Shown here: positions 31,290-32,451 of the stretch, in pieces
Position numbering within the stretch: the first letter of the stretch is position 1
How the letters are laid out: every line of letters begins with the position of its first letter
Virus record (IMG/VR): IMGVR_UViG_3300045988_153444
Origin: a virus
Lineage: Duplodnaviria; Heunggongvirae; Uroviricota; Caudoviricetes
DNA: 32,473 nt
Reading direction: 5' to 3' (one strand)
Translations under genes and position numbers: made by a program
The notes under the pieces: model-generated
Seen by the model: the letters and a program-made list of their open reading frames with translations, nothing else
What the model was told of the DNA's origin: nothing
Database searches by the model: none

Positions 31290-31383
31290 ATTTATATAAA
31301 AAGCGCTTTACAGGTGGGAAAAAATTTCCTATGTTATACCCGAAACCGAGCGATACCCGCCCTGGTTAAACCGGAGAAATCTG
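31290..31383 (+). promoter_or_regulatory. Promoter/5'UTR module, copy 2 of the duplicated upstream region (copy 1 at 3-98)
   Basis: About 95% identical to 3-90 (3 substitutions and 1 indel by hand alignment); -35-like TTTACA. Confidence 0.5.
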
Positions 31384-32451
31384 ATGAATAAACAAGTAAT
31401 TATTTCTGACTGGATCAACAACCCTAACAGCCTGTTAAGCACTGATACTGGCTACCTATTACGCCATGTTAATGGTCGTATGGTCAAAAGCGATGAGCAC
31501 GAAACCTTTTTCTTTGTTGAAGACGATGGGCGTATCTATGAGGATGGTTACTCTTATGAAGCCCAAACTGGTTGTATCCCTGCGGAGCTGGTGGACGTAA
31601 CAGAAGATCTGCGCAAAGCATGGCTTGAACAGCAGCAGCGCGGAGATGATTACGTAAACACCTATCAGGAACGCCAGAACGCGCGTCTTGCCCGATATAT
31701 TGCTCGTGCAGAAAAAGCCAGAAAAGAAGGTGCGGTAGCGCATAAGCGAGCGCATGACCTGTTGGATGTGATCCCGTTAGGCCAGCCGATTTTAGTTGAC
31801 CATTATAGCGCGAAAGGCCATCGCCGCCGTTTGTCTAAAGCTGATGCGTTATTCAGAAAAGCGTTTGTTGAATGCGAAAGTAAAGCATCACACTACGAGA
31901 GCAAAGCCGCAGGTGTTGGTCGTAATGGAATTTCGTCTGATGATCCTGATGCGCTATTTAAGTTGCTTCGTAAGCTGCAAGGCTGCATGAAGTCACACGT
32001 CAAAATGAAGGCCGCAAATAAGGCCATTCGCAAATACAAAAAAGACCAAATACAGCAGCTTTCTGCATTAATCGATCTCAGGTTTACAGAAAGCGAAGCC
32101 AAAGAGTTACTGGCCGGAGATTTCTGTGGGCGCATCGGATTCCCTTCATACGCACTGAGCAACAATAACGCCGAAATCAAACGACTACAGAGCCGTATTA
32201 AGGAGCTTGAATCGGTCAAGTCTGTAACAGGAGCACAGCGCGAAGAATACGACGGCTTTTCTATGGAGATAGATCCAGAGGATAACCGCATCCTGTTTTA
32301 TTTCCCTGGCAAACCAGAGGCAAACATTCGTTCGCTGCTTAAATCACGCGCCTTTAAGTGGAGTCCAACCCGTAATGCATGGGTTCGCAAGATTACTCCA
32401 AACGCCCTGGCTGATGCCCGATATCTAAAAGAATCGCTATTGAAAGCCTGA
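31384..32451 (+). CDS. Hypothetical protein, 355 aa (possibly DUF3560-like; unverified)
   Basis: Long ORF driven by copy 2 of the duplicated promoter; charged helical middle; C-terminus …FKWSPTRNAWVRKITPNA… Family assignment is from memory only. Confidence 0.65.
   Translation: MNKQVIISDWINNPNSLLSTDTGYLLRHVNGRMVKSDEHETFFFVEDDGRIYEDGYSYEAQTGCIPAELVDVTEDLRKAWLEQQQRGDDYVNTYQERQNARLARYIARAEKARKEGAVAHKRAHDLLDVIPLGQPILVDHYSAKGHRRRLSKADALFRKAFVECESKASHYESKAAGVGRNGISSDDPDALFKLLRKLQGCMKSHVKMKAANKAIRKYKKDQIQQLSALIDLRFTESEAKELLAGDFCGRIGFPSYALSNNNAEIKRLQSRIKELESVKSVTGAQREEYDGFSMEIDPEDNRILFYFPGKPEANIRSLLKSRAFKWSPTRNAWVRKITPNALADARYLKESLLKA

Follow-up and report, generated by a model that had tools for sequence, protein, structure and literature searches.

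IncP-1 plasmids have four global repressors, of which KorC is one. KorC acts with KorA in RP4 to keep klcA almost silent at steady state, and in fresh RP4 transconjugants klcA is the most strongly induced gene (120-220-fold), with the kle genes induced 15-50-fold (PMC7314908). Proteins of the DUF3560 (YdbA) family have been ranked no. 28 among the top families of plasmid leading regions, with 1,913 members, a false-discovery-rate p value of 0 and a median position 12 open reading frames (ORFs) from the origin of transfer (oriT), and are listed there as 'uncharacterized' (Samuel et al. 2024, supplementary table 3). Polyvalent proteins, for their part, are believed to do their work very soon after DNA has entered the cell (Iyer, Burroughs, Anand, de Souza, Aravind 2017); the main text of that study makes no mention of DUF3560, and our search of the literature on DUF3560 and PF12083 found no functional study. 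The subject of the present analysis is a DUF3560 gene at positions 31384-32451 (plus strand) of a 32,473-nucleotide stretch of tailed-phage DNA (IMG/VR record IMGVR_UViG_3300045988_153444), which as a whole we call the window.

The window is part of a 47-49 kb phage-plasmid of Escherichia coli of the myovirus type, and the gene stands directly behind a cassette that, by sequence comparison, is a diverged homologue of the promoter, operator and leader of the IncP-1 klcA/kleA ('kil') genes. We propose, with about as much confidence as doubt, that the gene product is a DNA-binding establishment or anti-defence factor made in a burst upon entry under KorC-type control.

The promoter cassette and its candidate regulator

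The cassette occupies 115 bp (31269-31383) between an intrinsic terminator and the DUF3560 gene and ends exactly at the ATG. It begins with an AT-rich part of 8-bp periodicity (ATAGAATT ATATAATT ATAGATTT ATATAAAA; 31269-31300), followed on the plus strand by a sigma-70-type core promoter, TTTACA-17-TATGTT (31307-31335, with the -35 element at 31307-31312 and the -10 element at 31330-31335), that is conserved in 10/10 aligned cassette copies. Within the spacer, and overlapping the first two bases of the -10 element, lies a 17-bp inverted repeat of 7-3-7 geometry, TGGGAAA-AAA-TTTCCTA (31315-31331), which we propose to be a KorC-type operator. The nearly invariant 5' leader (31336-31383, plus strand) carries the Shine-Dalgarno sequence GGAGA at 31373-31377.

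The klcA promoter of the IncP-1 plasmid used for comparison reads TAGGGCATTATGCCCTAtaat, where TAGGGCATTATGCCCTA extends over TATAAT (TAGGGCATTATGCCCTA+TAAT). In its 7-3-7 geometry, its TAGG...CCTA ends and the way it overlaps the -10 element, this operator agrees with the cassette repeat; the inner bases differ, being GAAA/TTTC in the candidate operator of the phage-plasmid and GGCA/TGCC in IncP-1. The IncP-1 klcA leader (...ACCCAGAGACCGAGC...AAACCGGAGAAAGACCGATG) is collinear with that of the cassette, with local alignment scores of 30-47 against 14 +/- 2.4 for dinucleotide shuffles, and none of 1000 shuffles reached the observed score. The likeness to RK2, RP4 and R751 covers the homologous leader and ribosome-binding site, the presence of about three cassettes per replicon (at the klcA, kleA and kleC promoters of the plasmids), and a regulator gene that itself stands behind such an operator. 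In many IncP-1 plasmids this cassette stands before klcA or kleA, and one such plasmid, with the cassette ahead of kleA, had no DUF3560 gene. What differs is the cargo, klcA or kle in IncP-1 and DUF3560 plus small ORFs here, and the host, which in our case is a tailed phage-plasmid. The two also part in their second control site: at the IncP-1 klcA promoter (locus L028, 8664-8700) a KorA operator, GTTTAGCTAAAC, abuts the KorC palindrome, whereas the phage-plasmid cassette retains the KorC-type site and has the AT-rich periodic element in place of the KorA site.

A candidate for the cassette repressor is encoded at 29745-30044 (plus strand), where a KorC-family helix-turn-helix (HTH) gene specifies 99 amino acids (95 from the annotated start at 29757). 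Its own promoter (29702-29730, plus strand) reads TTGCCA-cata-TAGGAAAAGATTTCCTA-ccat (TTGCCA-17-TACCAT) and contains a perfect 17-bp repeat, TAGGAAA-AGA-TTTCCTA (29710-29726), in the same position as in the cassettes. The window holds three such sites (TGGGAAAAAATTTCCTA at 28-44 and 31315-31331, TAGGAAAAGATTTCCTA at 29710-29726) where 0.1-0.2 are expected, and the complete 47.5-kb relative pECO-b75 holds exactly four, against an expectation of 0.21. In two diverged relatives (L025 and L026) the HTH protein is 71-72% identical and the flank upstream of its gene cannot be aligned with that of the window, yet the regulator promoter retains the order -35, 4 nt, TAGGAAAnnnTTTCCTA, ccat, and the cassettes bear a perfect TAGGAAAATATTTCCTA; at the level of sequence, this preservation of the operator layout across unalignable flanks is a phylogenetic footprint. 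Close relatives of the HTH protein are few and all belong to the phage-plasmid clade, save one 52%-identical IncP-1 homologue (pairwise E 1e-25) encoded between klcB and kleE (trfA-klcA-klcB-X-kleE-korA-incC-korB), which is the position of korC; weaker homologues in PLSDB are annotated KorC. Since the cassettes and the regulator promoter share an operator-like repeat and a KorC homologue is encoded, we infer from the observed homology and distribution of sites that the three cassettes and the regulator gene form a small KorC-type regulon, for which repression and entry-triggered expression would be expected. The regulator gene is followed, with overlapping stop and start codons, by a 96-amino-acid ORF (30041-30331; phrog_4595, no Pfam match), and both lie between repA and higBA.

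An earlier note on this DNA, made from the letters alone, had described a strong terminator upstream of the gene and a second copy of the promoter and leader, and both observations stand. The terminator (31237-31265, plus strand) ends the higBA unit with an 8-bp G+C-rich stem (31237-31259) and a T-run (31260-31265), and its sequence also follows higA in relatives. The repeat aligns positions 3-91 with 31290-31377 at ~90-95% identity with one indel, and chance does not account for it: a 46-nt cassette core occurs three times per related genome, against 0.00 expected. The other copy in the window, copy C (3-98, plus strand), has the promoter TTTGCA-17-TATGAT at 20-48 and its inverted repeat at 28-44, and drives two small ORFs at 99-368 (phrog_6143) and 368-565 (phrog_6621). 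A strong terminator follows at 587-610, and the unit thus looks self-contained rather than like the start of a late operon. The note's suggestion that the DUF3560 gene is regulated like the first gene of the window is in keeping with the presence of the same cassette and the same 17-bp operator-like repeat before both.

Three cassette copies per genome are found in the E. coli, Yersinia-phage and K. aerogenes relatives, where copy A follows higA and drives a 126-amino-acid ORF, copy B precedes the DUF3560 gene, and copy C follows a methylase gene and drives two small ORFs. The cassette is nearly invariant from the -35 element to the ATG even though the proteins are only ~70% identical, and the copies within one genome share derived variants, that is, they show concerted evolution. 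An Rfam scan of 31200-31450 gave nothing near thresholds, the leader RNA folds weakly (-9.9 kcal/mol, z -2.1), and no covariation in favor of an RNA element was seen, two changes in K. aerogenes falling in the predicted loop.

The AT-rich 8-bp-periodic element (TATAGAATTATATAATTATA; window 31269-31298) also recurs without a promoter, with 21 matches against 0.01 expected. In pECO-b75 the promoter-less copies lie at 6423-6450, 6502-6523, 11473-11492 and 16073-16102: two upstream of parA, one just after the DUF3560 gene and one before the methylase gene. The element was traced as well by the same 20-mer, found promoter-less upstream of parA and elsewhere in relatives. By analogy with the sites of KorA/KorB or omega in plasmids, it may be the site of a second, partition-linked regulator.

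The DUF3560 protein and its relatives

The ORF at 31384-32451 is a real gene, starting at ATG and encoding the 355-residue protein with the C-terminus (...FKWSPTRNAWVRKITPNA...) that the earlier note had quoted; ORF analysis, Pfam, PHROGs, alignment and AlphaFold2 all contribute to its description. The note's tentative assignment to DUF3560 was right. Residues 94-216 match PF12083 across profile positions 2-124 of 124 with 108.2 bits (E 3.7e-31), well above the Pfam gathering threshold of 27.2 bits, and the protein is 100% identical to RefSeq entries named just "DUF3560 domain-containing protein". PHROGs assigns it to phrog_6744, function unknown. It is thus a catalogued member of a known, uncharacterized family, and the novelty of the gene as such is modest.

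Four parts can be distinguished in the protein. An acidic, beta-rich N-domain (residues 1-92; 31384-31659; from predicted structure and composition) precedes the basic helical hairpin or bundle that constitutes the Pfam DUF3560 region (residues 93-217; 31660-32034). Short helices with a conserved DFCGRxGF...NNNA motif follow (residues 218-280; 32035-32223), and the protein ends in an alpha/beta domain with a predicted fold like the C-terminal domain (CTD) of MotA (residues 281-355; 32224-32448). In the AlphaFold2 model (mean predicted local distance difference test score, pLDDT, 89) helices span residues 93-128, 141-177 and 190-217, in agreement with the helical central region described earlier; residues 93-217 form a long antiparallel hairpin plus a third helix, then come the short helices, and the C-domain has the order beta-beta-beta-alpha-beta-beta-alpha. 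The Pfam model spans the helical hairpin only, and the window subfamily has the acidic N-domain in addition; this 92-residue domain is restricted to Enterobacterales relatives, and a profile search with it returned fragments of the same subfamily and one 95-amino-acid protein, with no other architectures.

The core (residues 93-355) has a pI of 9.9 and a net charge of +19 (family median pI 9.4), in contrast to the acidic N-domain (pI 4.3). The basic core therefore fits nucleic-acid binding, and it rules out that the protein works as a DNA mimic in the manner of ArdA or Ocr. Structurally, the modeled C-domain comes closest to the 'double-wing' DNA-binding CTD of T4 MotA, and its predicted fold is similar to the solved MotA CTD structures. 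Sequence identity between the two is only 6-7%, with no sequence-level match in Pfam or PDB, and the N-terminal sigma-binding domain of MotA has no counterpart in the window protein. When 22 C-domains were scanned against Pfam at E <= 10, no family recurred consistently, and PDB sequence searches with the whole protein, a C-domain profile and an N-domain profile returned spurious matches alone, such as antibody framework regions. No catalytic domain was detected in the protein with Pfam and NCBIfam, and PADLOC defence-system models matched neither it nor the other cassette-driven ORFs.

Across 40 diverse homologues 31 columns are invariant, and the residues of the window protein conform to them. 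It has the core-family motifs IPxGQPIL, GxISSDDPDA, MKxxN, NR(I/V)xFxF and FKWSPxRxAWVR, and its sole departure is DHYSA in place of GHHSE in the loop at residues 139-143 (31798-31812). GHHSE is found in 32/40 sequences and DHYSA in 4/40, the window protein included, and the change is correlated, as if the acidic residue had moved from position +4 to 0. Judged from the alignment, this covariation suggests that His, Ser and an acidic residue may form a functional cluster where the helical hairpin has its tip. A metal site at H140/H141/C248 was considered and rejected, the Cys not being conserved.

Immediately after the stop codon a G+C-rich hairpin begins (32452-32473; ACGGCGGGAcgtcTCCCGCCGT in relatives), within which the window ends. 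In pECO-b75 (11440-11516) it has no T-run, and a copy of the AT-rich element comes after it. Rather than a terminator, it may be a site of processing, of pausing or of protein binding. In relatives, the following gene encodes a MarR-like protein (phrog_1687).

The family is large, comprising 8,889 clusters at 50% identity (E <= 1e-3), or 2,910 at E <= 1e-30, and its commonest form is a core of ~265 amino acids equal to window residues 93-355. Homologues occur on 432 plasmids, of which 232 are typed conjugative. The relatives in Klebsiella, Enterobacter and Citrobacter have a 70% identical protein in the same position behind the same cassette. A full-length orthologue with 56% identity lies in the classical leading region of the Serratia IncFII/MPF_F plasmid NZ_MT039192, in the order ssb, parB-like, psiB, psiA, several small ORFs, DUF3560, DUF932, SLT, traM. 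This orthologue and the family match tie the window protein to the YdbA-like leading-region proteins of F-type plasmids. Unlike them, it is carried by a non-conjugative phage-plasmid: no relaxase or type IV secretion system (T4SS) was found in the window element or its relatives, and its gene consequently falls outside a leading region, defined as the first-transferred side of a conjugative plasmid between oriT and the ssb/psiB region.

Core-only relatives are found in several other settings: in PromA plasmids (radC-kleA-'ardC'-kfrA-primase-ssb-korA, where 'ardC' is the DUF3560 core gene), in an ICE- or plasmid-like ParA-ParB-RadC region (ICE, integrative and conjugative element), in Dickeya next to an LPD29 gene, KorA and SSB, and in one gut phage. 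Fusions of the core to ArdC-N, to LPD30 plus LPD29, and to LPD25 were seen, and all 8 of the 8 large relatives scanned bear a further domain (ArdC-N plus MPTase-PolyVal in four, DdrB-ParB in two, LPD25 in one and a DNA polymerase III beta-clamp in one); the beta-clamp is not a polyvalent-protein domain, and the remaining fusions count as polyvalent associations. A 1,306-amino-acid Enterococcus faecium protein (ArdA, ArdC-N, M78, LPD25, YodL, DUF4316) ends in a homologue of residues 174-338. These large relatives are polyvalent proteins in the sense of Iyer et al. 2017, and the DUF3560 core recurs within them or is encoded solo beside them; the window protein differs in being a free-standing product of 355 residues.

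Possible roles of the protein

Our proposal can be phrased as a sequence of events. In the established plasmid-prophage, the KorC-like protein would repress all four promoters. When the DNA enters a repressor-free cell, the three cassettes would fire transiently by zygotic induction, as klcA and kle do in RP4. The DUF3560 protein would then bind DNA with both the basic coiled coil of its core and the MotA-CTD-like domain at its C-terminus, and would favor establishment of the incoming DNA, most likely by protecting it against a host defence or processing activity or by counteracting that activity. The same might hold for relatives that are encoded in leading regions or are fused to ArdC-N/MPTase or DdrB-ParB. 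The comparative case for an establishment role of the protein consists of the KorC-type cassette, the orthologue in an F-type leading region and the polyvalent fusions, all of which are consistent with the earlier note's suggestion of an accessory gene with a possible early or establishment function.

Several observations weigh against this proposal. The element is non-conjugative and enters as injected double-stranded DNA, so that the logic of leading regions would transfer to it by analogy alone. No KorC-type cassette was found upstream of DUF3560 genes in the ICE, gut-phage, Dickeya, PromA and Serratia contexts, and the regulation and the function of the protein are therefore not evolutionarily coupled. 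The likeness to MotA depends on a predicted structure at 6-7% sequence identity, and the DHYSA loop could give the window protein an activity other than the one usual in the family. The window lacks the CI-like repressor and ParA region of the relatives, and the element may accordingly be defective or the contig misjoined. Finally, the operon behind cassette B continues in the direction of the holin and lysozyme genes, and the packaging and structural genes stand a short way downstream of cassette C, an arrangement that would suit promoters with a role late in the cycle or upon induction.

A more ambitious version of the proposal extends it to the whole family. The DUF3560 core could represent an unrecognized and very widespread class of DNA-binding establishment or anti-defence effectors, shared by conjugative plasmids, ICEs, phages and polyvalent proteins, and placed in this element under an imported, IncP-like, entry-triggered KorC/klcAp circuit. 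We regard this as a possibility, on the doubtful side.

Among the rivals, an accessory role in replication or priming fares best, though we consider it unlikely. According to this explanation, the protein recruits or organizes primase, SSB or a clamp and has no part in countering defence. Residues 173-351 do match phrog_19458 (E 3e-37), which bears the label 'primase', one relative has a DNA polymerase III beta-clamp domain fused to it, and ssb and primase genes are among the plasmid neighbors. The PHROG label, however, is an unverified annotation, no primase or polymerase catalytic domain was detected, and the dominant fusions are with anti-restriction and polyvalent domains (ArdC-N, MPTase, ArdA, DdrB-ParB) rather than with replication enzymes.

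The positions of cassettes B and C, together with the top structural match of the C-domain to the MotA DNA-binding domain and the MarR-like gene next in line, could also be taken to mean that the cassettes are late or induction-phase promoters and that the DUF3560 protein is a MotA-like factor redirecting RNA polymerase to middle or late genes. We think this quite unlikely. The breadth of the family, whose ~8,900 clusters occur in conjugative plasmids, ICEs, phages and polyvalent proteins, argues against a promoter-specific activator, and neither a MotA N-terminal domain nor an AsiA-like partner was found. Moreover, the core promoter is of good sigma-70 type, its spacer is 17 nt long and a repeat covers its -10 element; this arrangement is that of a promoter under repression rather than activation. 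The transcript from cassette C meets a strong terminator after two small ORFs.

Alternatively, the gene may be a dispensable passenger without a role in the life cycle, and the cassette a duplicated strong promoter homogenized by gene conversion. The concerted evolution of the copies would accord with this, as would the persistence as a plasmid of pCREC-544_3, a 32-kb derivative that lacks the gene, and the fact that no function is assigned anywhere in the family. It is nevertheless improbable in our view given that the gene is at least 99% identical in more than 60 plasmids and three isolated phages, that it keeps its position and its cassette at 70% identity in Klebsiella, Enterobacter and Citrobacter, that 31 columns are invariant across the 40 homologues, and that the cassettes have their operator in common with the regulator's own promoter.

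That the protein is an anti-restriction protein of the ArdC type (pSa/R388), whose genomic niche it shares, is scarcely credible: PromA records label the DUF3560 core gene 'ardC' and some relatives have an N-terminal ArdC-N, but the domain content of the window protein contradicts it, there being no Pfam match to ArdC-N (PF08401), no MPTase or peptidase match to a zincin-like metalloprotease in Pfam or NCBIfam, and an hhalign probability of just 0.3% that disposes of the divergent ArdC-N suggested for the N-domain by a MAFFT alignment.

The phage-plasmid, its atypical joint and wider significance

The region is at least 99% identical to three Yersinia pestis phages, vB_YpM_39/41/44, and to more than 60 circular plasmids of 47-49 kb, nearly all from Escherichia and typed non-mobilizable; no paper on vB_YpM_41 was found. 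The complete relative pECO-b75 encodes an IncFII-type RepA, the higBA pair, a CI-like repressor, ParA, Rha, a Ref nuclease and the DUF3560 gene, alongside holins, lysozyme, an MT-A70 methylase and ParB/Srx-like proteins, and its virion genes comprise terminase, head genes and a contractile tail. In the window the tail-fibre gene (ORF 23679-26525) has internal direct repeats at 24254-24473 and 26175-26396 (88 and 63 nt, ~80% identical), and the tape-measure gene has a repeat of 120-nt period at 18618-18899.

Upstream of the DUF3560 gene, Pfam identifies a HigB-like (Gp49) toxin (30570-30923) and an HTH antitoxin (30923-31222), together spanning 30570-31222 on the plus strand; we consider the pair a mere neighbor with no functional link to the gene. 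The earlier note's placing of the gene downstream of a toxin-antitoxin pair holds for the window and fails for the relatives, where ~9.3 kb separates higA from the DUF3560 gene, the cassette after higA drives the 126-amino-acid gene and DUF3560 stands behind another copy. The higA-cassette-DUF3560 adjacency is unique to the window: no record spans the joint among 132 PLSDB plasmids, 100 complete E. coli genomes and seven IMG/VR loci, and searches split there, the higA side matching up to 31387 and the DUF3560 side from 31271. The window cassette is a chimera, A-like to ~31288 and B-like from ~31292 (compare pECO-b75 948-1056 and 10264-10371), and the window therefore lacks the ~9.3 kb between copies A and B, where relatives have the CI-like repressor, ParA, Rha, Ref nuclease and DUF1064. 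The joint is either a recombination deletion between cassettes A and B that took away the region for lysogeny and partition, or an artefact of assembly in which the 117-bp repeat was collapsed.

Natural deletion derivatives do exist. One of them, the circular pCREC-544_3 (NZ_CP024829.1, 32,182 bp), belongs to the same phage-plasmid and is without ~15 kb, including parA, the CI-like gene, the DUF3560 operon, the lysis genes and cassettes B and C; several of its structural genes are split. Decaying derivatives of the phage-plasmid thus persist as plasmids.

As far as our searches show, neither the homology of the cassette with IncP-1 kil promoters, nor the KorC homologue with its four candidate operators, nor the predicted MotA-like C-domain has been described previously. 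Together they make the function of the gene directly testable. DUF3560 proteins are among the commonest families of plasmid leading regions, and none has an assigned function; the phage-plasmid offers a small and tractable example, in the form of a single free-standing gene whose promoter is defined, whose operator is predicted and for which there is a candidate repressor. The phage-plasmid can be obtained as isolated phages (vB_YpM_39/41/44), and clinical E. coli carry it in plasmid form. The cassette homology shows that a tailed phage-plasmid took up regulatory modules of broad-host-range plasmids, which bears on how the two lifestyles are combined. If the entry-triggered KorC circuit operates as proposed, a tailed phage would be using plasmid-style zygotic induction to deploy a DUF3560 protein, and should that protein turn out to act in anti-defence or establishment, the finding would apply to thousands of resistance plasmids as well.

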